DNA of 18,079 nt, taken from positions 1-18,079 of the IMG/VR virus record IMGVR_UViG_2698536536_000001, one strand, 5' to 3'. Each line of letters opens with the position of its first letter. Position 1 is the stretch's first letter. The notes under the pieces are model-generated. The model saw only the letters and a program-made list of their open reading frames with translations, had not been told where the DNA came from and did no database searches. This document shows positions 3,901-18,079 of the stretch, piece after piece. The position numbers and the translations under genes are program-made. This stretch comes from a virus. Lineage: Duplodnaviria > Heunggongvirae > Uroviricota > Caudoviricetes.

Positions 3901-4172
3901 GTATTCGTATTGAAATTGGCGAACGTTATGTCGTTACCAGTGACAGCTTTCAGTTTATTCTCCACGAGAAAAAGAGAGCGGAAAGCGGTAAAAACGCCGG
4001 TCAGGAATGGCTGGCGGTGGTTGGTTATTATCCGAAATTAAGCCAGCTCGTTTCCGGCCTGATGCATCACGATATTCTGACCGGAAGCGCAAAGTCTTTT
4101 GCTGATTTAAACGCGCAGGTTGAGCAACTCAGCAGGCGTTGTTCAGAGGCTTTTGGCTCATATGGCCGTTAA
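3897..4172 (+). CDS. Hypothetical early-region protein (P2 orf83 position)
   Basis: ORF overlapping both neighbours (ATGA-type junctions). Synteny only. Confidence 0.45.
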   Translation: MSIRIEIGERYVVTSDSFQFILHEKKRAESGKNAGQEWLAVVGYYPKLSQLVSGLMHHDILTGSAKSFADLNAQVEQLSRRCSEAFGSYGR

Positions 4173-5753
4173 AGCCTCCGGGCGTTTTGTCCCTCCTTCA
4201 GCATTTGCTGCAGGCACCGGTAAGGCGTTTACCGGTGCTTATGCATGGAACGCGCCACGCGAGGCCGTCGGGCGCGAAAGACCCCTTACACGTGACGAGA
4301 TGCGTCAGGTGCAAGGTGTTTTATCCACGATTAACCGCCTGCCTTACTTTTTGCGCTCGCTGTTTACTTCACGCTATGACTACATCCGGCGCAATAAAAG
4401 CCCGGTATTGAGCGTTACGCCGCCGCAGAGGGTGATGTGGGGATGTTTATCACGCTGACCGCGCCGTCAAAGTATCACCCGACTCGTCAGGTCAGAAAAG
4501 GCGAAAGTAAAACCGTTCAGCTTAATCACGGCTGGAACGATGAGGCATTTAATCCAAAGGATGCGCAGCGTTATCTCTGTCGTATCTGGAGCCTGATGCG
4601 CACGGCATTCAAGGATAATGATTTACAGGCCTACGGTTTGCGTGTCGTTGAGCCACACCACGACGGAACGCCGCACTGGCATATGATGCTTTTTTGTAAT
4701 CCACGCCAGCGTAACCAGATTATTGAAATCATGCGTCGCTATGCGCTCAAAGAGGATGGCGACGAAAGAGGAGCCGCGCGAAACCGTTTTCAGGCAAAAC
4801 ACCTTAACCGGGGCGGTGCTGCGGGGTATATCGCGAAATACATCTCAAAAAACATCGATGGCTATGCACTGGATGGTCAGCTCGATAACGATACCGGCAG
4901 ACCGCTGAAAGACACTGCTGCGGCTGTTACCGCATGGGCGTCAACGTGGCGCATCCCACAATTTAAAACGGTTGGTCTGCCGACAATGGGGGCTTACCGT
5001 GAACTACGCAAATTGCCTCGCGGCGTCAGCATTGCTGATGAGTTTGACGAGCGCGTCGAGGCTGCACGCGCCGCCGCAGACAGTGGTGATTTTGCGTTGT
5101 ATATCAGCGCACAGGGTGGGGCAAATGTCCCGCGCGATTGTCAGACTGTCAGGGTCGCCCGTAGTCCGTCGGATGAAGTTAACGAGTACGAGGAAGAAGT
5201 CGAGAGAGTGGTCGGCATTTACGCGCCGCATCTCGGCGCGCGTCATATTCATATCACCAGAACGACGGACTGGCGCATTGTGCCGAAAGTTCCGGTCGTG
5301 GAGCCTTTGGCTTTAAAAAGCGGCATCGCCGCGCCTCGGAGTCCTGTCAATAACTGTGGAAAGCTCACCGGTGGTGATACTTCGTTACCGGCTCCCACAC
5401 CTTCTGAGCACGCCGCAGCAGTGCTTAATCTGGTAGATGACGGTGTTATCGAATGGAATGACCAGGAGGTCGTGAGGGCGCTCAGAGGTGCATTAAAACA
5501 CGGTCTGAGAAGACCAAACCGTCAGCAAAGAAACGGAAGCCCGTTAAAACCGCATGAAATAGCGCCATCGGCCAGACTGACCCGGTCGGAACGAATGCAA
5601 ATTACCCGTATCCGCGTTGACCTTGCTCAGAACGGTATCAGGCCGCAGCGATGGGAGCTTGAGGCGCTGGCGCGTGGTGCAATTGTGAACTATGGCGCAA
5701 AAGAATTTCATTACCATGTTCAGAAGGCGTGGGAAGCATTTTCGAGGTGGTAA
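4162..5753 (+). pseudogene. A: Rolling-circle replication initiator gene A, apparently frameshifted
   Basis: N-terminal frame MAVKASGRF… from 4162 ends at 4458. The C-terminal frame opens at 4398 and runs to 5753. The two frames are reconciled by a 1-nt change in the A4 run at 4396..4399. The C-terminal part carries an HUH motif (HHDGTPHWHMMLF) and a two-tyrosine motif (YIAKYISK). The combined length of about 530 aa is shorter than the roughly 760 aa I recall for P2 A. Confidence 0.7.
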
Positions 5754-5863
5754 TCTAAATATGAAAAATCTGCACACCGAAACACTCTTGTAGGTTGATA
5801 ATTTGCAAACTAGGTGGATTTACTCTTTGATGTGTAAGAAGTTATACTACAAAAAATTGATTT

Positions 5864-6784
5864 ATGGGCTTGGCGATGTATAACGATCCTTATAGTGACC
5901 CAAAAGCGTGGGAATCATATTTCAAAAATATTGTTTGGCTACATTATAAGCCTGCTAACTGTTGTGACTTGCCAGATGAGCATGGAGGCGACTTTGGGCT
6001 GGAGTGTTACACTCTGAGTGGTCATGTTTTTCAGTGTTACTTGCCTGAGCAGTCGAGTGATATTGATAAGCTTTATAAAGCGCAACAAAAAAAGATTTAT
6101 ACTGATATAAAAAAGTTTTCTCAGGATAACATTAAAGAATTAGAGGAGCTTTTTGGCACATTAAAAATTAGCCGCTGGATATTAGCTACACCATATAATA
6201 AATCGGCGAAATTAAGTCAATATTGCACAAAAAAATCATTAAAAGTAAGAGAGTTAGGGATTTCTTACGTTGCTGATGATTTTCAAATAGTAGTGCAAAC
6301 AGATCGAAATTATATAGAAGAAGCGTTCTTTCTTCGCAAAAATAACTATCAATTAAGCTTTAATATAAATGATGCGACGGCTGAGAATGCTGCTAACTTT
6401 ATTAGTGAAAATACATCTTTTTTAGATAAGCTAAATTTAAAATTACCTAAGATAAATGATGATGTATCTAGGCAGGGTTTATATAGAGAGTTTTTAATAC
6501 AAAAATATCTTGATTATCAAAACTTGCTGGATGCTTTGAAGAGAGACTGGGTTGATATCTATGAAATTATCTATAACTGTGTTCAACATAGAGAACGTAA
6601 TTTGGTAGGTCTCTTTCTTCTTACTTCATCAGATGCGAAACCATCAGATATAATGAAAGATGAAATCGCTTTGTTAAAGAAATGTATTGAAGAGGAAGTT
6701 AGTACGCTTAAACAGGCTGACTTGGATAAGATAACATGGGGAGTTATTTCTGATTGGCTTATAAGATGCCCTTTAGATTTTTAG
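5864..6784 (+). CDS. Cargo gene 1: unknown 306-aa protein, candidate effector of a defence operon
   Basis: Long ORF in a sharply AT-rich block directly after A, in the P2 tin/old hotspot position. N-terminal Cys/His-rich patch (NCCDLPDEHGGDFGLECYTLSGHVFQCY). No motif assignable by eye. Confidence 0.6.
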   Translation: MGLAMYNDPYSDPKAWESYFKNIVWLHYKPANCCDLPDEHGGDFGLECYTLSGHVFQCYLPEQSSDIDKLYKAQQKKIYTDIKKFSQDNIKELEELFGTLKISRWILATPYNKSAKLSQYCTKKSLKVRELGISYVADDFQIVVQTDRNYIEEAFFLRKNNYQLSFNINDATAENAANFISENTSFLDKLNLKLPKINDDVSRQGLYREFLIQKYLDYQNLLDALKRDWVDIYEIIYNCVQHRERNLVGLFLLTSSDAKPSDIMKDEIALLKKCIEEEVSTLKQADLDKITWGVISDWLIRCPLDF

Positions 6785-6785
6785 A

Positions 6786-7262
6786 ATGGAAAAGCAAATG
6801 CATATAACGATAGATGAAATAATAGGAAGGCCGTTTACGTTTAATAAACGACCTGAACATTTGCCATGTGATATGAGACCATTGTGGCGTTGCAGTTTGT
6901 TGCTGATAATATTCCTTGTCACAGGGAGAGCTGGTTGCTGTTCTTTAAAAAAACTTCATTTAATTAATTGGATGTTAAAGTCAGAGAATAATGAAGCAAT
7001 GTTTGAATTCTGGCTTTTAAACAAAGAAGGTTTAAAGCCTGAAGTAAGATTGGATCCAACTTTAGATAGAGCAATACAGCTATTATTAGCAGAGGATTTT
7101 ATTTTGAGAAATGAACGAGCGTTCAAAATAAATGAAAAGGGGCTTAAGGTCGCTGAGAAATTGCTTTCTCTTGATGTGTTCAAAGAAGAAAGGTTGGTGC
7201 TAAATAAACATAAGGCTGGACTGTCCGAAACTAACATTAATAAAATATTTCAGGTGGGTTAA
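6786..7262 (+). CDS. Cargo gene 2: unknown 158-aa protein
   Basis: Starts 2 bp after the gene 1 stop and ends 1 bp before gene 3. Same AT-rich composition. Contains one hydrophobic stretch (LWRCSLLLIIFLVTG). Confidence 0.55.
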   Translation: MEKQMHITIDEIIGRPFTFNKRPEHLPCDMRPLWRCSLLLIIFLVTGRAGCCSLKKLHLINWMLKSENNEAMFEFWLLNKEGLKPEVRLDPTLDRAIQLLLAEDFILRNERAFKINEKGLKVAEKLLSLDVFKEERLVLNKHKAGLSETNINKIFQVG

Positions 7263-7263
7263 T

Positions 7264-9285
7264 ATGTCGTTGGAAATTATTTCATTGGAGTTAGTAGCAA
7301 ATACTTCGGATGGGCGTTATGGTGTTAGTATACCTTTTTCAAATGGCTTGTTTTTATTAAGAGTTGAGAATTCTCATGGTAAATCAACTTGCATGAATGG
7401 GATTGCATATGCACTTGGGATGGAAAAGGCATTAGGTGTCGGTTCTGGAAAAATCCCATTCCCTCCATCTTTGACTAGAGCACTAACGACAAAAGATAAT
7501 GTTGAAGTTAGTGTAATATCATCTTATGTTTTGCTAAAAATAAAGAATCATAAGGGAATAGAAGCATCTTTGAAAAGGAATATTATCGGTCACGATAATA
7601 ATAATGTTATTTATATAGATGAGAAGAATAATGTAAAAAGTAAGAGTGGTACTTATTTTTTACATAGAGAGGGCGATACTGAAAGGGAACGTGGTTTCTA
7701 TAAGTGGTTAGCTGATTTTATAGGTTGGAGTTTGCCAAATGTTCCAAACCATAATGGGAAGGACACTATTCTTTATCCATCCGTACTTTTCCCTGCATGG
7801 TATGTTGAGCAAAAAAAAGGATGGTCGTCAATTATGGCGACTGTACCAACACAATTTGGAATTAAAGAGCCAAAGAAAAGAGCTCTAGAATTTTTAATGT
7901 CTCTTGATGTTAATGATAATATTTTATTGCGTAGTTCGTTAAGAAATGAACTTGATATTATTTATCATGATTGGAAGTTAATTAAACACAATGCAGAAGT
8001 TATTGCTTCTAAATTGTCGTCAGTTGTCACAGGGATTCCTGAACAACCAGTGGCAAAATTTGATCATTATAAGATAGATTTGATTATTAAAAATGGTAGT
8101 GTCGTTAGATCTATTGTTGATGTTCGTAATGAACTGGAAAAAGAGTTGCAAGAAATTAAGTTTGACACTCTTGGTGAGCAAGAAGAACAAACTTTACAAT
8201 TATCAGTGGTTAAGTTATTAGGTCAAAAAAATGATGAAATTAACTCTCTGGAATTAAAGATTAAAGAGATTTGTGAGCATAGAAGTTATATTCAATATCA
8301 AATTCAGGCGACCAAAAACAGATTGTATAATCTGTTGGAAGATAAAAGGAAGTATGAAGATTTAAAGAAAATATCATCTTCGGATGCGTATAAGTCAACA
8401 GATTTAATGTCAAATATTTGTCCGACTTGTGGTGCAAGTTATAATGATAATTTGCTAAGTTTTTCATCGCAAGAAAATCTGATGACATATGAAGATAGTT
8501 TGAACTTTATTAAAGAGCAAGTAAAAGCATTTGAGTTTGTTCTGTCGGATAGTGAAAAGCAATTAAAGCTTAAAGATGTTGAGAGGAGTGATTTAGAGGG
8601 GGAAATAGCCAAGATTAGAGTTGATATTAATGCATTAAGGGAGTCAAAATATCCCTCAATGGTTGTTCAGGAGGAGTTTCTGAGACGTAAAATAAACATT
8701 GAGAATAAAATTAATGCCATTAACGATGGCATTAAAAGTATATTGGACATTAGACTGGAGTTGGATTCATTACACCGTAGATATAAAAAGCTTATCGCGA
8801 AAAGAAAAGGGTTGCCAGATAATTTCTTGTCGCGTAATGATGCCGATAAGTTAAAATTTCTTAATAAAGAAGTCGTTGCACGATTAGAAAAATATAATTT
8901 TACAAGTTTTGATTCTAAACTTGTGTCAATATCAGAAGATAATTACTTACCTACTAGGGAAGGATATGATATAGGTTTTGACACATCAGCTAGTGATGGA
9001 ATAAGAATCATTTGGGGTTATTTAATAAGTTTATTTGTTGTTGGTTCTAAATTTCAAACAAATCACCCTGGATTGATTGTGTTTGATGAGCCTCGTCAAC
9101 AAGAAGCAAATAAAGTAAGTTTTGCCGAGTTACTTAAAGATGCTGCAGAAACAACAAAAGGACAAGGGCAGATCATTTTTGCTACATCAGAAGATGAAAA
9201 TGTCTTAAAAGAGGCATTAGAAGGGTATGACTATACAATGATATCCTTTGATAAGAACAATGGGAAATTGTTGAGGAAATTATAA
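7264..9285 (+). CDS. Cargo gene 3: SMC/Rad50-like ABC ATPase with coiled-coil arms, 673 aa
   Basis: N-terminal Walker A-like P-loop VENSHGKST (about 7366..7389). Long K/E/L-rich heptad-like middle region. CPTC motif at 8419..8430 near the middle of the coiled coil. C-terminal Walker B/D-loop GLIVFDEP (about 9071..9094). Confidence 0.75.
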   Translation: MSLEIISLELVANTSDGRYGVSIPFSNGLFLLRVENSHGKSTCMNGIAYALGMEKALGVGSGKIPFPPSLTRALTTKDNVEVSVISSYVLLKIKNHKGIEASLKRNIIGHDNNNVIYIDEKNNVKSKSGTYFLHREGDTERERGFYKWLADFIGWSLPNVPNHNGKDTILYPSVLFPAWYVEQKKGWSSIMATVPTQFGIKEPKKRALEFLMSLDVNDNILLRSSLRNELDIIYHDWKLIKHNAEVIASKLSSVVTGIPEQPVAKFDHYKIDLIIKNGSVVRSIVDVRNELEKELQEIKFDTLGEQEEQTLQLSVVKLLGQKNDEINSLELKIKEICEHRSYIQYQIQATKNRLYNLLEDKRKYEDLKKISSSDAYKSTDLMSNICPTCGASYNDNLLSFSSQENLMTYEDSLNFIKEQVKAFEFVLSDSEKQLKLKDVERSDLEGEIAKIRVDINALRESKYPSMVVQEEFLRRKINIENKINAINDGIKSILDIRLELDSLHRRYKKLIAKRKGLPDNFLSRNDADKLKFLNKEVVARLEKYNFTSFDSKLVSISEDNYLPTREGYDIGFDTSASDGIRIIWGYLISLFVVGSKFQTNHPGLIVFDEPRQQEANKVSFAELLKDAAETTKGQGQIIFATSEDENVLKEALEGYDYTMISFDKNNGKLLRKL

Positions 9286-9594: not shown

Positions 9595-10629
9595 TCAGCC
9601 GTTGTCAGTGTCCAGTGAGTAGTTTTTAAAGCGGATGACCTCCTGACCGAGCCAGCCGTTTATCTCGCGGATCCTGTCCTGTAGCGGGATAAGCTCATTG
9701 CGGACAAAGACCTTTGCCACTTTCTCAATATCACCCAGCGACCCGACGTTCTCCGGCTTGCCGCCCATCAACTGAAAGGGGATGCGGTGCGCGTCCAGCA
9801 GGTCAGCGGCGCTGGCTTTTTTGATATTAAAAAAATCGTCCTTCGTTGCCACTTCACTGAGCGGGATAATTTTGATGCCGTCGGCTTTCCCCTGTGGGGC
9901 ATAGAGAAACAGATTTTTAAAGTTGTTGCGGCCTTTCGACTTCACCATGTTTTCGCGGAGCATTTCGATATCGTTGCGATCCTGCACGGCATCAGTGACG
10001 TACATGATGTATCCGGCATGAGCGCCGTTTTCGTAATACTTGCGGCGGAACAGTGTGGCTGATTCATTCAGCCAGGCAGAATTAAGGGCGCTGAGATATT
10101 CCGGCAGGCCGTACAGCTCCTGATTGATATCCGGCTCCAGCAGGTGAAACACGGAGCCGGGCGTGAAGGCTGTCGGCTCGTTGAAGGACGGCACCCACCA
10201 GTAAACATCCTCCTCCACGCCACGGCGGGTATATTTTGCCGGTGAGGTTTCCAGTCTAATGACCTTACCGGTGGTGCTGTAACGCTTTTCCAGAAACGCA
10301 TTACCGAACACCAGAAAATCCAGCACAAAGCGGCTGAAATCCTGTTGCGAAAGCCACGGATGCGGGATAAATGTCGAGGCCAGAATATTGCGTTTAACGT
10401 AAATCGGTGAGCTGTGATGCACGGCAGCACGCAGGCTTTTCGCCAGACCGGTAAAGCTGACCGGCGGCTCATACCATCTGCCGTTACTGATGCACTCGAC
10501 GTAATCCAGAATGTCACGGCGGTCGAGTACCGGCACCGGCTCACCAAAGGTGAAAGCCTCCATTTTCGGGGCGCTGGCGGTCATTTTTTTTGCCTCAGGT
10601 TGCGGTGTTTTCCCTTTTTTCTTGCTCAT
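9595..10629 (-). CDS. Q: Portal (capsid) protein Q, 344 aa
   Basis: 344 aa, the length I recall for P2 Q. N-terminus MSKKKGKTPQP… Adjacent to cos and in P2 orientation. Confidence 0.85.
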   Translation of the reverse strand: MSKKKGKTPQPEAKKMTASAPKMEAFTFGEPVPVLDRRDILDYVECISNGRWYEPPVSFTGLAKSLRAAVHHSSPIYVKRNILASTFIPHPWLSQQDFSRFVLDFLVFGNAFLEKRYSTTGKVIRLETSPAKYTRRGVEEDVYWWVPSFNEPTAFTPGSVFHLLEPDINQELYGLPEYLSALNSAWLNESATLFRRKYYENGAHAGYIMYVTDAVQDRNDIEMLRENMVKSKGRNNFKNLFLYAPQGKADGIKIIPLSEVATKDDFFNIKKASAADLLDAHRIPFQLMGGKPENVGSLGDIEKVAKVFVRNELIPLQDRIREINGWLGQEVIRFKNYSLDTDNG

Positions 10630-10940
10630 CAGTAAAACTCCAGAATGGTGGATGTCAGCGGAGTGCTGATACCGGCGGTGAGTGGCTCATTTAACAGGGC
10701 GTGCATGGTTGCCCAGGCGAGGTCGGCGTGGCTGGCTTCCTCGCTGCGGCTGGCCTCATAGGTGGCGCTGCGTCCGCTGCTGGTCATGGTCTTGCGGATA
10801 GCCATAAACGAGCTGGTGATGTCGGTGGCGCTGACGTCATATTCCAGACAGCCACGGCGGATAACGTCTTTTGCCTTGGCCGACATCGTGCTCAACAGTA
10901 CGCAGGCGTCTTTCTGTACCGAATACCGCGTCGTGACCGG
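10629..10940 (-). pseudogene. P: 3' remnant of terminase large-subunit gene P, truncated by deletion
   Basis: Open frame whose stop overlaps the Q start (ATGA), as for P-Q in P2, but only about 100 codons remain before it collides with gene I on the opposite strand. Upstream boundary is approximate. Homology to P not verified. Confidence 0.4.
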
Positions 10941-10948
10941 AGGCTCGG

Positions 10949-11479
10949 ATGAGTGATTCGCGACTGCTGCCGACCGGCTCATCACCGCTTGAGGTCGCCG
11001 CCGCAAAAGCCTGTGCGGAAATTGAAAAAACGCCGGTCAGTATTCGTGAGCTGTGGAACCCGGACACCTGTCCGGCAAATCTGCTGCCGTGGCTGGCGTG
11101 GGCGTTTTCGGTCGACAGGTGGGATGAAAAGTGGCCGGAAGCGACAAAACGCGCCGTTATCCGCGATGCGTATTTCATCCACTGTCATAAGGGCACTATC
11201 GGTGCAATCCGGCGTGTGGTGGAGCCGCTCGGCTATCTCATCAACGTGACGGAGTGGTGGGAAAACAGTGACCCGCCAGGCACCTTCCGGCTTGATATTG
11301 GTGTTCTGGAAAGTGGCATCACAGAGGCAATGTATCAGGAAATGGAACGGCTGATTGCTGATGCCAAACCTGCAAGCCGTCACCTTATTGGCCTGAACAT
11401 TACCCGGGACATTCCCGGCTACCTGTTCGCCGGTGGTGTGGCTTACGACGGCGATGTAATTACGGTTTACCCCGGATAA
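10949..11479 (+). CDS. I: Baseplate assembly protein I, 176 aa
   Basis: 176 aa with sequence matching recalled P2 gpI (MSDSRLLPTGSSPLEVAAAKA…). SD ggagg upstream. Immediately followed by H. Confidence 0.8.
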   Translation: MSDSRLLPTGSSPLEVAAAKACAEIEKTPVSIRELWNPDTCPANLLPWLAWAFSVDRWDEKWPEATKRAVIRDAYFIHCHKGTIGAIRRVVEPLGYLINVTEWWENSDPPGTFRLDIGVLESGITEAMYQEMERLIADAKPASRHLIGLNITRDIPGYLFAGGVAYDGDVITVYPG

Positions 11480-11489
11480 GTGAGGAATA

Positions 11490-13700
11490 ATGAGCACAAA
11501 ATTCAGAACCGTTATCACCACTGCCGGTGCAGCAAAGCTGGCAGCGGCAACCGCGCCGGGAGGGCGGAAGGTCAACATTACCACGATGGCCGTCGGGGAT
11601 GGCGGTGGTAAATTGCCTGTCCCGGATGCCGGACAGACCGGGCTTATCCATGAAGTCTGGCGACATGCGCTGAACAAAATCAGCCAGGACAAACGAAACA
11701 GTAATTATATTATCGCAGAGCTGGTTATTCCGCCGGAGGTGGGCGGTTTCTGGATGCGTGAGCTTGGCCTGTACGATGATGCGGGAACATTAATTGCCGT
11801 GGCGAACATGGCCGAAAGTTATAAGCCAGCTCTTGCCGAAGGCTCAGGGCGTTCGCAGACCTGTCGCATGGTCATCATCGTCAGCAGTGTGGCCTCAGTG
11901 GCGCTGACCATTGACACCACAACGGTGATGGCGACGCAGGATTACGTTGATGACAAAATTGCAGAGCATGAACAGTCACGACGTCACCCGGACGCCTCGC
12001 TGACCGCAAAAGGTTTTACTCAGTTAAGCAATGCGACCAACAGCACGTCTGAAACACTGGCCGCAACGCCGAAAGCGGTAAAGGCCGCGTATGATCTTGC
12101 TAACGGGAAATACACTGCGCAGGATGCCACCACAGCGCGAAAAGGCCTTGTCCAGCTCAGTAGCGCCACCAACAGCACGTCTGAAACGCTCGCCGCAACA
12201 CCAAAAGCGGTAAAGGCAGCATATGACCTGGCTAACGGGAAATATACCGCACAGGACGCCACCACAGCGCGAAAAGGCCTTGTCCAGCTCAGTAGCGCCA
12301 CCAACAGCGATTCTGAAACGCTTGCGGCAACGCCAAAGGCGGTAAAAGCAGCATATGACCTTGCTAACGGGAAATACACTGCACAGGATGCCACCACGGC
12401 GCGAAAAGGTCTTGTCCAGCTCAGTAGCGACACCAACAGTGATTCTGAAACGCTGGCCGCAACACCAAAAGCGGTGAAGTCTGCCTATGACAATGCTGAA
12501 AAACGTCTTCAGAAAGATCAGAACGGTGCGGATATTCCGGGAAAGGATACCTTCACGAAAAATATCGGTGCCTGTCGTGCTTATAGCGGTGCTTTGAGCA
12601 CTGAAGCCGGAAACTGGACAACCGCTCAGTTTATTGACTGGCTAGAGTCTCAGGGAGCCTTTAATCATCCCTACTGGATGTGCAAGTGTTCCTGGTCATA
12701 CGGTAATAACAAAATTATTACCGATACTGACTGTGGGACGATTCATCTTGCAGGTTGCGTGATTGAGGTTATGGGCGTTAAAGCAGCAATGACCATTCGT
12801 GTGACCACTCCGAGTACATCAAGCGGTGGTGGTACCACCAGTGCGCAATTCACGTATATCAATCACGGAGCTGATTATGCGCCGGGCTGGCGACGCGACT
12901 ACAATACGAAAAATAAGCAACCGGCTTTTGCATTAGGGAAAACAGGAAATACGGTTGCAAATAATAAAGCGGTAGGATGGAACTGGGACAGTGGTGCTTA
13001 TTGTGCAAAGGATGGCGGAGCATCCAAAATGGTGCTGCATTTTTACACGGGTGAGGGAAGTTGTCCGGCAATGCAGTTTCTTGTGGATTATAAAAACAGG
13101 GGGATTTTTTACAGGTCGGCACGTGATTGGTATGGATTTGAGGCTGACTGGTCAGAGTTTTATACCACATCACGAAAGCCAACACCTGCGGATATTCTTG
13201 CTCTGGCATTATCAGGTGGAAGCATGTCAGGCAGCATAAAATTTATCAATGATGCCTTCCTGATTTGGGAAAGAAACACTGATTGGGCGAAAATTGGATT
13301 TAAAAATGATTCAGATGCTGATTCTGACTCATACATGTGGTTTGAAACTGGTGATAATGGCAATGAATATTTTAAATGGCGCATCAGGTCTGGCAGCACA
13401 ACAAAAGATCTGATGACGCTTAAGTCTGATGCACTACGGGTTACCGGGCAGGTGATACCATCAAATTTCAGCAATTTTGACTCCCGCTATGTCCGGGATA
13501 TCCGGCTTGGTGGTGCCGCCACATACAAACCTGCGAACAATGGCATGACATGGACACATCAGGCACCGTCCGGGTGTGTATATACCGGCATTATTGTTCA
13601 GGATACCGGCTCAAACTCTGCCGATAACATTGGTGGCGTATATTACAGACCGGTTCAGAAATACATTAACGGGACGTGGTACAACGTGGCGCAGGTATAA
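11490..13700 (+). CDS. H: Tail fibre protein H, 736 aa, with internal tandem repeats
   Basis: Conserved P2-type N-terminus (MSTKFRTVITTAGAAKLAAA…). Central 44-aa tandem repeats. C-terminal part is lower in GC and presumably the receptor-binding region. SD gagga upstream. Followed by G. Confidence 0.85.
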   Translation: MSTKFRTVITTAGAAKLAAATAPGGRKVNITTMAVGDGGGKLPVPDAGQTGLIHEVWRHALNKISQDKRNSNYIIAELVIPPEVGGFWMRELGLYDDAGTLIAVANMAESYKPALAEGSGRSQTCRMVIIVSSVASVALTIDTTTVMATQDYVDDKIAEHEQSRRHPDASLTAKGFTQLSNATNSTSETLAATPKAVKAAYDLANGKYTAQDATTARKGLVQLSSATNSTSETLAATPKAVKAAYDLANGKYTAQDATTARKGLVQLSSATNSDSETLAATPKAVKAAYDLANGKYTAQDATTARKGLVQLSSDTNSDSETLAATPKAVKSAYDNAEKRLQKDQNGADIPGKDTFTKNIGACRAYSGALSTEAGNWTTAQFIDWLESQGAFNHPYWMCKCSWSYGNNKIITDTDCGTIHLAGCVIEVMGVKAAMTIRVTTPSTSSGGGTTSAQFTYINHGADYAPGWRRDYNTKNKQPAFALGKTGNTVANNKAVGWNWDSGAYCAKDGGASKMVLHFYTGEGSCPAMQFLVDYKNRGIFYRSARDWYGFEADWSEFYTTSRKPTPADILALALSGGSMSGSIKFINDAFLIWERNTDWAKIGFKNDSDADSDSYMWFETGDNGNEYFKWRIRSGSTTKDLMTLKSDALRVTGQVIPSNFSNFDSRYVRDIRLGGAATYKPANNGMTWTHQAPSGCVYTGIIVQDTGSNSADNIGGVYYRPVQKYINGTWYNVAQV
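12010..12495. repeat. Tandem coding repeats inside H, 132-bp unit, about 3.7 copies
   Basis: Units begin at about 12036, 12168, 12300 and 12432. They are roughly 90% identical, differing mainly at third codon positions, and encode ATNSTSETLAATPKAVKAAYDLANGKYTAQDATTARKGLVQLSS. Confidence 0.85.
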
Positions 13701-13703
13701 TTT

Positions 13704-14231
13704 ATGCAGCATTTGATAAATATAACGGCAGGTAATCCAAAAACGGTTGAACAATATCAATTGACAAAGGACTTTGATGTTGTCTGGTTTTTTTCAGAAG
13801 ATGGTAAGAACTGGTACGAAGAACAAAAGTATTTTGCTGATGACACGATAAAAATAGCGTACGACAAAGATAATATTATCCGCTATGTGGAAAAGGATGT
13901 GACAGCTATCAGACCGGATGGATTAAGTGTGGTTGAAGTGGTGGATATTACTGCTAATCGACGGGCGGACATTTCAGGGAACTGGATGTTTAAGGACGGC
14001 AAAGTGATTAAACGCATTTATACGGCAGAGGAATTGCGGCAGCAGGCAGAAAACCGGAAAGCCAGACTTCTTGCAGATGCTGAATCCGTGATTTTGCCGC
14101 TGGAGCGCGCGGTCAGACTGAACATGGCAACAGATGAGGAGCGTAGCCGACTGGAAGCATGGGAACGCTACAGCGTTCTGGTCAGTCGTGTGGAGCCTGC
14201 AAATCCTGAATGGCCGGAAATGCCGCAATAA
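13704..14231 (+). CDS. G: Tail fibre assembly protein G, 175 aa
   Basis: 175 aa, directly downstream of H as in P2. Start is 3 bp after the H stop. Confidence 0.8.
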
Positions 14232-15308: not shown

Positions 15309-16145
15309 ATGAGTGACTATCATCACGGCGTGCAGGTGCTGGAGATTAACGACGGCACCCGCGTCATTTCCACCGTATCCACTGCCATTGTCGGCATGGT
15401 CTGCACGGCCAGCGATGCGGATGCGGAAACCTTTCCCCTCAATAAACCTGTGCTGATTACCAATGTGCAGAGCGCAATTGCAAAGGCCGGTAAAAAAGGC
15501 ACGCTGGCGGCGTCGCTGCAGGCCATCGCCGACCAGTCAAAACCGGTCACCGTTGTTGTGCGCGTGGAAGACGGCACCGGCGACGACGAGGAAACGAAAC
15601 TTGCGCAGACCGTTTCCAATATCATCGGCACCACCGACGAAAACGGTCAGTACACCGGCGTAACGGCAAAGTGGTTACACACCAAAGACCCGAAGCCGCA
15701 AAAGCAGAAGGTAAAACTGAAACGCAAAAAGAAAGAAAAACACCTGCGCGCACTGGAGCACCCGAAAGCGAAACCGGTCACGCAGAAGAAAGCGCCAAAA
15801 GTACCGGAAGCGCGCGAAGGTGAATACATGGCCGGTGAAGCTGACAACGTTTTTGCCCTGACTACGGTATATGCCACGAAAGCACAGGCCATGCGCGCCG
15901 CTCAGGCGAAGTGGGATAAACTGCAACGGGGCGTTGCGGAGTTCTCCATCAGCCTTGCCACTGGTCGTGCTGATATTTACACGGAAACACCGGTCAGAGT
16001 GTCAGGCTTTAAGCGCGTCATAGACGAGCAGGACTGGACCATCACTAAGGTGACACATTTTCTGAATAATAGCGGCTTCACGACGTCCTTGGAGCTTGAG
16101 GTCAGGCTTTCTGATGTGGAGTACGAAACAGAAGATGATGAGTAA
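15309..16145 (+). pseudogene. In-frame fusion remnant: tail sheath FI N-terminus joined to tail protein D C-terminus (yegZ-like)
   Basis: First ~118 residues ([14 protein letters not shown]…TDENGQYTG) match the recalled P2 FI sheath N-terminus. The C-terminal ~100 residues lie immediately upstream of ogr, where gene D ends in P2. The two are joined by a Lys-rich linker. FII, E, T, U and most of FI and D are missing. Confidence 0.65.
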
Positions 16146-16546: not shown

Positions 16547-16573
16547 AAAAAATAAGCCCGTGTAAGGGAGATT
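16547..16573. repeat. Right copy of 27-bp P2 att core
   Basis: Exact direct repeat of 477..503. It overlaps the terminator end of cyaR. Confidence 0.8.
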
Positions 16574-16634
16574 ACACAGGCTAAGGAGGTGGTTCCTGGT
16601 ACAGCTAGCATTTTATGGGTTATGTTTTTCAGCG
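16547..16634 (-). ncRNA. cyaR: Hfq-dependent small RNA CyaR (RyeE)
   Basis: Minus-strand sequence GCTGAAAAACATAACCCATAAAATGCTAGCTGTACCAGGAACCACCTCCTTAGCCTGTGTAATCTCCCTTACACGGGCTTATTTTTT matches recalled CyaR, including the CCUCCU anti-SD motif and the terminator hairpin with U-tail. Between yegQ and ogr, as in E. coli K-12. Confidence 0.8.
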
Positions 16635-16684
16635 AAACGGATGATAACCTTAATAAATGCAGCTGTATGTGATCGGTTTCTAAG
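16635..16684 (-). promoter_or_regulatory. Putative cyaR promoter with CRP-like site
   Basis: Reading the minus strand, a -10-like TATCAT lies at -13..-8 relative to the inferred +1 (plus coordinates 16642..16647). A CRP-like half-site pair TTAGA-N6-TCACA lies at 16669..16684. CyaR is known to be CRP-activated; the site match is partial. Confidence 0.4.
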
Positions 16685-16717: not shown

Positions 16718-18079
16718 TCACTTACCGTGGGGATTACGCGTGGTTTCCCCGGAGAAATTACGCATCAGCAGCGCGTAATTGAGCTCAAGATCCTGCGGGA
16801 CCGGGAGCCACACAGTATAACCATCGCCTGGTGCTATCGGCATAGCTTCGCCTTTGGCGTTTTCCATGTGCTCAAGGGTAAAATTAATGTTGCCTTGCGG
16901 CGTCATCAGCTCAAGGCTGTCGCCAACGGAGAATTTATTTTTCACCGCTACCGCCGCGAGGTCCCCCTTGCGCTCACCGGTAAACTCACCAACAAACTGC
17001 TGGCGGTCAGAAACTGAATAACCGTATTCGTAGTTCTGATAATCGTCGTGAGTATGACGACGCAGGAAACCTTCGGTATAGCCACGATGCGCCAGACCTT
17101 CCAGAGTTTCCAGCAGGCTGGTATCGAACGGTTTTCCCGCAGCGGCGTCATCGATAGCTTTGCGGTAAACCTGTGCGGTGCGTGCACAATAGTAGAAAGA
17201 TTTGGTACGACCTTCGATTTTCAGCGAATGCACGCCCATTTTGGTCAGGCGTTCTACATGGGCGATGGCGCGCAGATCTTTCGAGTTCATGATGTAAGTG
17301 CCGTGCTCATCTTCAAACGCGGTCATATACTCGCCCGGACGCTGGGCTTCTTCGATCATAAACACTTTGTCGGTTGGCGCGCCGATACCTAGCGTCGGCT
17401 CAACATTTTGCACCGGAATCGGCTCGTACTTGTGTACGATGTTGCCAACGTCATCTTCTTTCCCTTCCTGGACGTTGTACTCCCAGCGGCAGGCGTTGGT
17501 GCAGGTACCCTGGTTCGGATCGCGCTTGTTGATATAGCCAGAGAGCAGGCAGCGACCGGAGTAGGCCATGCACAGCGCACCGTGAACGAAGATCTCGATC
17601 TCCATATCCGGCACCTGATTGCGGATCTCTTCAATCTCTTCCAGCGACAGCTCGCGAGAGAGGATCACGCGGGTCAGGCCCATTTGCTGCCAGAATTTCA
17701 CCGTCGCCCAGTTTACGGCGTTAGCCTGCACCGAGAGGTGGATCGGCATTTCAGGGAAGTGCTCACGCACCAGCATAATCAGCCCTGGATCGGACATAAT
17801 CAGCGCATCCGGCCCCATTTCCACCACCGGTTTCAGGTCACGGATAAAGGTTTTCAGCTTGGCGTTGTGCGGTGCAATGTTGACCACGACATAAAACTTT
17901 TTCCCCAGCGCGTGGGCTTCATTGATGCCGAGCTGAAGATTTTCGTGGTTGAATTCGTTGTTGCGCACACGCAGGGAGTAACGCGGCTGGCCCGCATAAA
18001 CAGCATCTGCGCCATAAGCGAAAGCGTAACGCATATTTTTCAGCGTTCCCGCCGGGGAAAGGAGTTCCGGTTTAAACAT
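16718..18079 (-). CDS. yegQ: U32-family peptidase-like protein YegQ (TrhP), 453 aa, complete
   Basis: Full-length ORF from MFKPELLSPAGTLKNMRYAFAYGADAVYAGQ… matching recalled E. coli YegQ. The start codon is at the last three bases of the window. Confidence 0.9.
   Translation of the reverse strand: MFKPELLSPAGTLKNMRYAFAYGADAVYAGQPRYSLRVRNNEFNHENLQLGINEAHALGKKFYVVVNIAPHNAKLKTFIRDLKPVVEMGPDALIMSDPGLIMLVREHFPEMPIHLSVQANAVNWATVKFWQQMGLTRVILSRELSLEEIEEIRNQVPDMEIEIFVHGALCMAYSGRCLLSGYINKRDPNQGTCTNACRWEYNVQEGKEDDVGNIVHKYEPIPVQNVEPTLGIGAPTDKVFMIEEAQRPGEYMTAFEDEHGTYIMNSKDLRAIAHVERLTKMGVHSLKIEGRTKSFYYCARTAQVYRKAIDDAAAGKPFDTSLLETLEGLAHRGYTEGFLRRHTHDDYQNYEYGYSVSDRQQFVGEFTGERKGDLAAVAVKNKFSVGDSLELMTPQGNINFTLEHMENAKGEAMPIAPGDGYTVWLPVPQDLELNYALLMRNFSGETTRNPHGK

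Follow-up and report, generated by a model that had tools for sequence, protein, structure and literature searches.

A probable LmuC middle component of a type II Lamassu system in a P2-like prophage remnant of Escherichia coli

What is the role of a 158-residue protein whose gene is wedged, with one nucleotide to spare on either side, between two larger genes of a prophage? The question is raised by the gene at 6786..7262 (+) of the window (the whole stretch of DNA analysed here, 18,079 nucleotides). We consider this gene, with a probability of about 0.85, to be lmuC, encoding the small "middle component" of a type II Lamassu (LmuA-LmuC-LmuB) abortive-infection system, which is carried as AT-rich cargo in a hotspot of a P2-like prophage. 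Type II Lamassu systems are also called ABC-3C and DdmABC.

The reading frame begins with ATG and encodes 158 amino acids plus a TAA stop codon. At 34% GC, about 7% of random codons are stop codons, and by our own arithmetic a run of 158 open codons has a chance probability of about 6e-6. The frame was confirmed as a real gene, and an antisense ORF of 93 amino acids within it (6956..7237) is taken to be a mechanical ORF. The tight fit between genes 1 and 3 that had been read from the sequence was borne out at both junctions. Upstream, the TAG of gene 1 (6782-6784) is followed by a single A (6785) and the ATG at 6786; downstream, the TAA (7260-7262) is followed by a single T (7263) and the ATG of gene 3 at 7264, leaving a 1-nt spacer at each end (TAG-a-ATG and TAA-t-ATG). 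The start codon is ambiguous between M1 (6786) and M5 (6798; 154 amino acids). M1 has no Shine-Dalgarno sequence and M5 has GGAAAAG upstream; RefSeq uses M5, giving the 154-residue protein. The equivalent of M5 is the only possible start in a Xenorhabdus homologue, and the equivalent of M1 is the only start present in Salmonella arizonae homologues. Whichever start is used, lmuC begins 1-13 nt past the lmuA stop codon, and the description as tightly coupled holds both ways. The version of the protein in phrog_22260 has 96 residues and starts at M63 (6972-7262); it is too short, because the conserved F17, F19, R22-P23 and R31-P32 lie upstream. Phage annotations thus evidently call a truncated lmuC without the conserved N-terminal 60 residues.

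At the other end of the gene, a strong Shine-Dalgarno sequence for lmuB, AGGTGGG (7252-7258, +), was read from the sequence five bases 5' of the gene 3 ATG and within lmuC codons Q156-V157-G158. In Xenorhabdus, the lmuB Shine-Dalgarno sequence likewise lies within the 3' end of lmuC (caggtggggtaaTATG). Since this site is embedded in the last lmuC codons, coupled translation of lmuC and lmuB is supported, as the original prediction had proposed. The fixed stoichiometry that it had proposed alongside does not hold in the sense of equimolar subunits, because the solved Lamassu complexes have the composition A1:B2:C1 (PMC12663957; bioRxiv 10.1101/2025.06.23.660979). Coupling ensures that lmuA, lmuC and lmuB are expressed together, and the strong internal lmuB site may allow extra, independent initiation. 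The C-terminal residues K-I-F-Q-V-G (7243-7262) are invariant or nearly so in close homologues and not in the wider family; as their codons carry the lmuB AGGTGGG, their conservation may reflect a dual constraint by coding and by lmuB ribosome binding.

The family assignment is carried by a profile match. The protein matched the PADLOC LmuC model PDLC03871 (E 2.5e-23, model positions 1-148 of 156), and the same model was matched by 83 of 83 diverse relatives, with essentially no other model matched. These 83 sampled relatives are the basis of all family-wide residue statistics given here. With the PADLOC model, the protein shares its size, its middle position and a full-length match, and nothing distinguishes it at the family level. 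The suggestion of a small adaptor subunit in a three-component ABC/SMC defence system is thereby borne out and has gained a family name, LmuC, encoded between LmuA and LmuB. An exhaustive profile search retrieved relatives in 568 clusters at E<=1e-3, of which 263 reached E<=1e-10; almost all are single-domain proteins of 150-165 amino acids that match end to end. Close homologues in Enterobacterales numbered 18 in a word-indexed search, with identities of 54-99%. Compared with enterobacterial homologues, pN was 0.20-0.30 against a saturated pS of 0.76-0.82, which indicates purifying selection on the LmuC protein.

Several other resources gave no identification. Pfam and NCBIfam scans of LmuA, LmuC and LmuB found nothing significant, and a PHROGs search placed the cassette proteins only in families of "unknown function". 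PDB sequence searches, run with each of the three proteins and with the LmuC profile of 83 sequences, retrieved no chain of LmuC, LmuA or LmuB, a megablast of the cassette against a phage collection returned no matches, and the RefSeq accessions of the three proteins were absent from the literature searched. PADLOC gives no functional description of the PDLC03871 subfamily, and the literature searched reports no assay of its members. Several NCBI and UniRef records label LmuC homologues of 154-158 amino acids "serine/threonine protein kinase" (P0002, P0003, P0005, P0006, P0011 and P0015). This label is without support in the sequence, the Pfam scan or the model, and looks like a propagated annotation error.

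The neighbouring genes encode the expected partners. The upstream gene, lmuA (5864..6784, +), encodes the effector subunit of 306 amino acids (302 from the RefSeq start at 5876) and matched PADLOC PDLC03852 (E 1.1e-29). Its AlphaFold2 (AF2) model (pLDDT 89.2) contains an alpha/beta part (residues 1-160) and a helical bundle (173-301), corresponding to a predicted N-terminal effector domain and a predicted helical C-terminal docking domain. The top PDB matches of this model in Foldseek were the solved LmuA chains 9nxx, 9hr5 and 9ny1 (prob 0.82-0.99; 0.89-0.99 for 9nxx and 9hr5), followed by the PD-(D/E)xK nucleases CdiA-CT, Can2 and Card1, and the N-terminus is predicted to adopt a PD-(D/E)xK-like nuclease fold. 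Invariant residues of LmuA include D43, E47, Q57, Y59 and K77, which would fit a variant PD-(D/E)xK site in a putative nuclease. The canonical Cap4 QxK lysine is absent, with Q57-C58-Y59 instead, and a Pfam scan of LmuA gave no match, including to Cap4 and CTD/CTD7. The downstream gene, lmuB (7264..9285, +), encodes an SMC/Rad50-like ABC ATPase of 673 amino acids, which matched PADLOC PDLC03863 over its full length (E 1.1e-98); the Pfam AAA_23 match was sub-threshold. The translation contains a Walker A GKS (39-41), a zinc hook CPTC (386-389) and a Walker B DE (608-609), with the two Walker motifs separated by a coiled coil. At 673 residues, LmuB belongs to the "short" Lamassu class (described in PMC12663957). 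Since its Walker B is canonical and a zinc hook is present, unlike in V. cholerae LmuB, the control of the ATPase may differ from that of the V. cholerae protein. A consensus scan found a promoter-like site, TTTACT-18-TATACT (5819..5848, +; 9/12 matches), just 5' of lmuA. This is a weak candidate for the operon promoter, as AT-rich DNA has many such matches, and repeat and promoter/terminator scans of the cassette otherwise returned only chance-level matches.

The three genes also travel together. A locus search with the alignment of close homologues yielded 2 loci. Across all loci the order A-C-B was found in 8 of 8, from six independent contexts, with LmuC identities of 25-71%. The contexts are a Salmonella arizonae integrase island, a Pantoea island beside MazEF, a MAG beside ParE toxins, two metagenomic contigs beside helicase or restriction genes, and one short contig. 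At all eight loci a LmuA homologue (25-78% identity) precedes the middle gene and a LmuB homologue (28-69%), encoded by one gene or a split pair, follows it; between C and B, the arrangement varies from an overlap of 19 nt to a spacer of 1 nt. Identities to the A, C and B proteins of the cassette are 78/71/69% in Pantoea and 67/56/59% in Salmonella, and about 25-36% for each protein in the four metagenomic or MAG loci. LmuA, LmuC and LmuB diverge in parallel, as expected for subunits of one complex. Co-occurrence of the middle gene with homologues of the gene 3 ATPase had been proposed as a check, and it is seen in all eight loci, down to 25% identity. Its linkage to SMC-like ATPase genes and its conservation as a coding gene, on which the adaptor reading depended, were seen in the synteny, in the homologues and in the purifying selection. 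As a small gene between lmuA and lmuB that matches the LmuC family, in a conserved three-gene operon with these partners, it agrees with a type II Lamassu lmuC in every respect that could be tested. In one metagenomic lineage the LmuB homologue is split (L011 5465-7503, 400+286 amino acids; L012 3330-5320, 384+265 amino acids), at about residue 386, the position of the zinc hook. This could be a genuine split or a shared frameshift.

To describe the fold of LmuC, we used an AF2 model made from a 14-sequence alignment (mean pLDDT 84.7, pTM 0.81). Its N-terminal part contains a helix (28-46), a strand (51-53), a helix (54-64) and an inserted helix (67-78); its C-terminal part contains a helix (91-102), a hairpin (106-109/112-115) and then three helices. 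The predicted structure follows the H1-S1-H2-H3-S2-W-S3 topology of the winged helix-turn-helix (wHTH), and LmuC is predicted to be a wHTH protein with extensions. The candidate recognition helix is 91-102 (PTLDRAIQLLLA; 7056..7091, +), followed by the wing (106-115) and G119. P91 and G119 do not vary among the 83 relatives, in which R95 and A96 are also conserved. Foldseek searches against PDB and BFVD and PDB-profile searches returned generic wHTH proteins, all of the matches listed being below significance. The weak matches comprise MarR, MntR, DtxR/IdeR, Sso10a, S19e, Stn1 and HTH_45, the last of these being a sub-threshold Pfam match in 15 of the 83 relatives. The profile matches to Sso10a, IdeR/DtxR and S19e, though weak, align exactly on helix 91-102 and the wing. 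In a published study, short LmuC models repeatedly matched HTH transcription factors (PMC12663957), and our wHTH matches agree with that remark. Residues 1-30 were modelled with low confidence (block pLDDT 49-72) and are among the best conserved, with F19 in 89% of the 83 relatives, R31 in 99%, P32 in 83% and R22-P23 conserved as well. Because this segment is poorly modelled and yet so well conserved, it may become ordered only on a partner. Helix 28-46 and the N-terminal FxFxxRP...RPxWR motif most likely provide the core of the fold and partner-binding surfaces.

How does this protein compare with LmuC proteins of known structure? V. cholerae DdmB belongs to the MC3 family (PMC11707656), and the MC3-type LmuC has HTH-like models, is essential to defence and touches the DNA backbone (PMC12663957; PMC11707656). 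Our protein resembles DdmB/VcLmuC and the Salmonella LmuC, both MC3, as a single-domain globular protein of about 160 amino acids encoded between a nuclease LmuA and a short LmuB. In sequence it shows no detectable similarity to the solved MC3-type LmuC (entries such as 9ny5), for which phmmer and profile searches of the PDB were empty. It had no match at E<=1 to any of Pfam MC1-MC8, and hence none at the gathering thresholds; MC3 (PF20131) was matched by 2 of the 83 relatives, at E 0.046. Foldseek against the PDB placed no LmuC chain among the best 50 of 485 matches (best E 0.19). The partners differ from those of the solved systems too: LmuA has no Pfam Cap4/CTD7 match, in contrast to the Cap4-CTD7-MC3 subfamily, and LmuB keeps its zinc hook and canonical Walker B, in contrast to DdmB/VcLmuC-type systems. 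The cassette therefore represents a catalogued yet uncharacterised Lamassu subfamily, in which LmuC is either a very divergent MC3 or a separate family. We regard it as possible, if doubtful, that this subfamily is also structurally and mechanistically distinct from the solved MC3 type, such that its LmuC might have another way of docking on LmuB or another DNA structure as its target. The features that speak to this reading are a sequence outside MC1-8, an unusually hydrophobic first helix, the conserved disordered FxFxxRP...RPxWR motif, and as partners a PD-(D/E)xK-like LmuA without the Cap4 QxK lysine and a LmuB with a zinc hook and canonical Walker B. If this were true, unrelated or very divergent winged-helix proteins would have come to occupy the "middle component" slot of Lamassu on more than one occasion.

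The preferred role of LmuC follows the Cap4-CTD7-MC3 complexes, on which three independent structural studies agree. These complexes are LmuA1:LmuB2:LmuC1, with a central LmuC that touches both LmuB coiled coils, the LmuA C-terminal domain and one LmuB head, and that also contacts the backbone of the dsDNA whose end LmuB holds; mutations of LmuC interfaces or of its DNA-binding lysines abolish defence, and activation frees LmuA to form a tetramer, which is the active nuclease (PMC12663957; bioRxiv 10.1101/2025.03.14.643221; 10.1101/2025.06.23.660979). In other Lamassu subfamilies, deletion of lmuC abolishes defence (bioRxiv 10.1101/2022.05.11.491447), and anti-phage or anti-plasmid activity has been demonstrated to need all three genes (bioRxiv 10.1101/2022.05.11.491447; PMC12663957). 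By analogy, one LmuC monomer would sit at the centre of an LmuA1:LmuB2:LmuC1 complex, where both LmuB protomers would touch it through their folded coiled coils and zinc-hook region, and LmuA through its helical C-terminal domain. These contacts would keep the LmuA nuclease monomeric and inactive. A basic surface of LmuC, together with one LmuB head, would bind the dsDNA backbone beside a DNA end or replication intermediate from an infecting phage. Sensing and ATP turnover would then release LmuA, which would oligomerise, degrade DNA and kill the infected cell. The most likely role of LmuC is thus to keep the LmuA nuclease inactive on the LmuB dimer and to assist in the binding of DNA ends. 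On the strength of the fit in family assignment, operon structure, size, predicted fold and basic character (predicted pI 8.9), we transfer this mechanism with moderate confidence. LmuC would accordingly be more than a passive adaptor, as it also contacts DNA in the solved complexes.

The wHTH is also the typical fold of kleisin and kite subunits, and LmuC might instead join the two LmuB heads as a kleisin-like or MukE/ScpB-like subunit, in the manner of canonical SMC complexes, rather than sit at the apex of the coiled coils. One LmuC relative weakly matches Pfam MukE (E 0.028), Foldseek gave a weak match to Nse1/MAGE (5hvq), and the subfamily is unlike the solved MC3 type, with a canonical Walker B and zinc hook in LmuB. 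However, the MukE and Nse1/MAGE matches are at chance level, one domain of 158 amino acids is too small to span two heads, and in the complexes predicted for 14 short Lamassu systems LmuC invariably takes the position that it has in the solved V. cholerae complex (PMC12663957). We judge a head-bridging subunit unlikely.

A stand-alone winged-helix transcription factor, regulating the defence operon or prophage genes, would explain the predicted fold, the basic pI and the restriction of the similarities to MarR, MntR and DtxR-type regulators. With MarR/DtxR domains LmuC shares the predicted helix-strand-helix-helix-wing topology, and its "P-x-L-x-R-A" recognition-type helix, hairpin and "LTxxG" align with the Sso10a and IdeR wings. 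It differs from them in its extra helix (67-78), its conserved N-terminal extension and its three C-terminal helices, and the matches have E values of 0.16-1, none of the regulator matches falling below 0.16. Moreover, lmuC is always the middle gene of the operon, co-varying with LmuA and LmuB; its product is matched by a model dedicated to LmuC; the upstream region (5754-5863) showed no palindromic operator; and the equivalent protein in the solved complexes is a stoichiometric subunit with a non-specific DNA-backbone contact (PMC12663957). A regulator acting alone is thus a slim prospect, somewhat below the head-bridging subunit. The roles of regulator and complex subunit are not mutually exclusive.

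The single strongly hydrophobic segment that had been noted is present, as C36-T46 (CSLLLIIFLVT; 6891..6923, +), but it is part of the predicted winged-helix domain and no separate feature. Its Kyte-Doolittle mean is 2.93 over 11 residues, all of them apolar in the E. coli protein, and it lies inside helix 28-46. Across the 83 relatives the apolar run comprises only 8 residues (36-43), bounded by R35 (charged in 92%) and position 44 (charged in 41%); R35 and R48 are the conserved flanks. We read the segment as a buried core or interface helix of the predicted domain and not as a membrane span. A transmembrane or anchoring helix that would hold the Lamassu complex at the inner membrane, for which the run of 11 apolar residues and a 19-residue Kyte-Doolittle mean of 1.93 (above the classical threshold of 1.6) would speak, is the least credible of these readings, given that the 8-residue family-wide run is too short for a bilayer (on which ground we rejected it), that close homologues have a Lys inside it (P0007 and P0008), that AF2 places the helix as the first core helix of a compact globular domain (block pLDDT 88-95), that LmuC has neither a second hydrophobic segment nor a signal peptide, and that V. 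cholerae LmuC is reported to be soluble alone (bioRxiv 10.1101/2025.06.23.660979).

The cassette resides in a P2-like prophage. Its genes have 33-35% GC, against 53-54% for the flanking P2 genes, which are the 3' part of replication gene A on the left (4437..5753, +; Pfam Phage_GPA, E 9e-57) and portal gene Q on the right (9595..10629, -; Pfam Phage_portal and the RefSeq annotation of an identical region). The cassette is taken to be AT-rich cargo acquired in the gene A/portal hotspot, the classic site of defence genes in P2. Cargo of this hotspot includes old, tin and other systems (Rousset et al. 2022, as cited in bioRxiv 10.1101/2022.05.11.491447; PMC13586616), and Lamassu-family systems have previously been reported in prophage hotspots (bioRxiv 10.1101/2022.05.11.491447; PMC13586616). 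The cassette shares with P2 hotspot defence cargo the position between gene A and portal Q and the AT-rich insert; it differs in that the prophage here is heavily deleted, whereas the cassette is intact. An identical cassette is found in strain PSUO2, in an otherwise intact P2-like prophage beside yegR. At an identity of at least 99%, the cassette occurs in 32 of 5,426 complete E. coli genomes, always on the chromosome, where RefSeq mostly annotates it as three hypothetical proteins.

Relative to the intact PSUO2 prophage, gene A (4162-5753) has an internal deletion of 679 bp with its junction near 4404-4406. This length is not a multiple of 3 and leaves only the C-terminal ORF of 438 amino acids (4437..5753), and with gene A so disrupted the prophage cannot replicate. 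At 10878, where the terminase gene has run for about 250 bp, similarity to the intact prophage ends, and the gene that follows encodes P2 tail protein I (10949..11479). Because the terminase break adjoins tail protein I (10629-11479), the terminase, capsid, lysis and baseplate genes are missing. The ORF at 15309..16145 fuses the N-terminal domain of the tail sheath to the C-terminal part of gpD, which indicates a second large deletion. The tail-fibre gene (11490-14231; 736 amino acids, Phage_fiber_2 repeats and a gp37_C domain) is retained, as is its assembly gene. The prophage is thus a remnant of about 16 kb with an intact Lamassu cassette, and this exact configuration was found in no complete E. 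coli genome of the collection. One side of the prophage is yegR (1-318, +), and on the other the CyaR/RyeE sRNA (16550-16635, -; Rfam 100.7 bits) lies beside the peptidase U32 gene yegQ (16718-18079, -), which defines the yegR/cyaR-yegQ chromosomal site. E. coli K-12 carries a small P2 remnant (ogrK, yegZ) at the same site.

Taken together, the gene is of a known kind, the LmuC of a known defence system family, that genome annotation still lists as hypothetical. The main value of the assignment is the correction of annotation, for the three "hypothetical proteins" of RefSeq and for the "serine/threonine protein kinase" of NCBI. With LmuC named, a complete Lamassu system can be recognised in 32 of the 5,426 complete E. 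coli genomes. The system belongs to a Lamassu subfamily without a solved structure or Pfam coverage of LmuA and LmuC, which makes it a reasonable comparison point for the generality of the sequester-and-release mechanism. Finally, the cassette is intact although the replication, packaging and most morphogenesis genes of the prophage are gone, which fits with retention of the defence cargo by the host.
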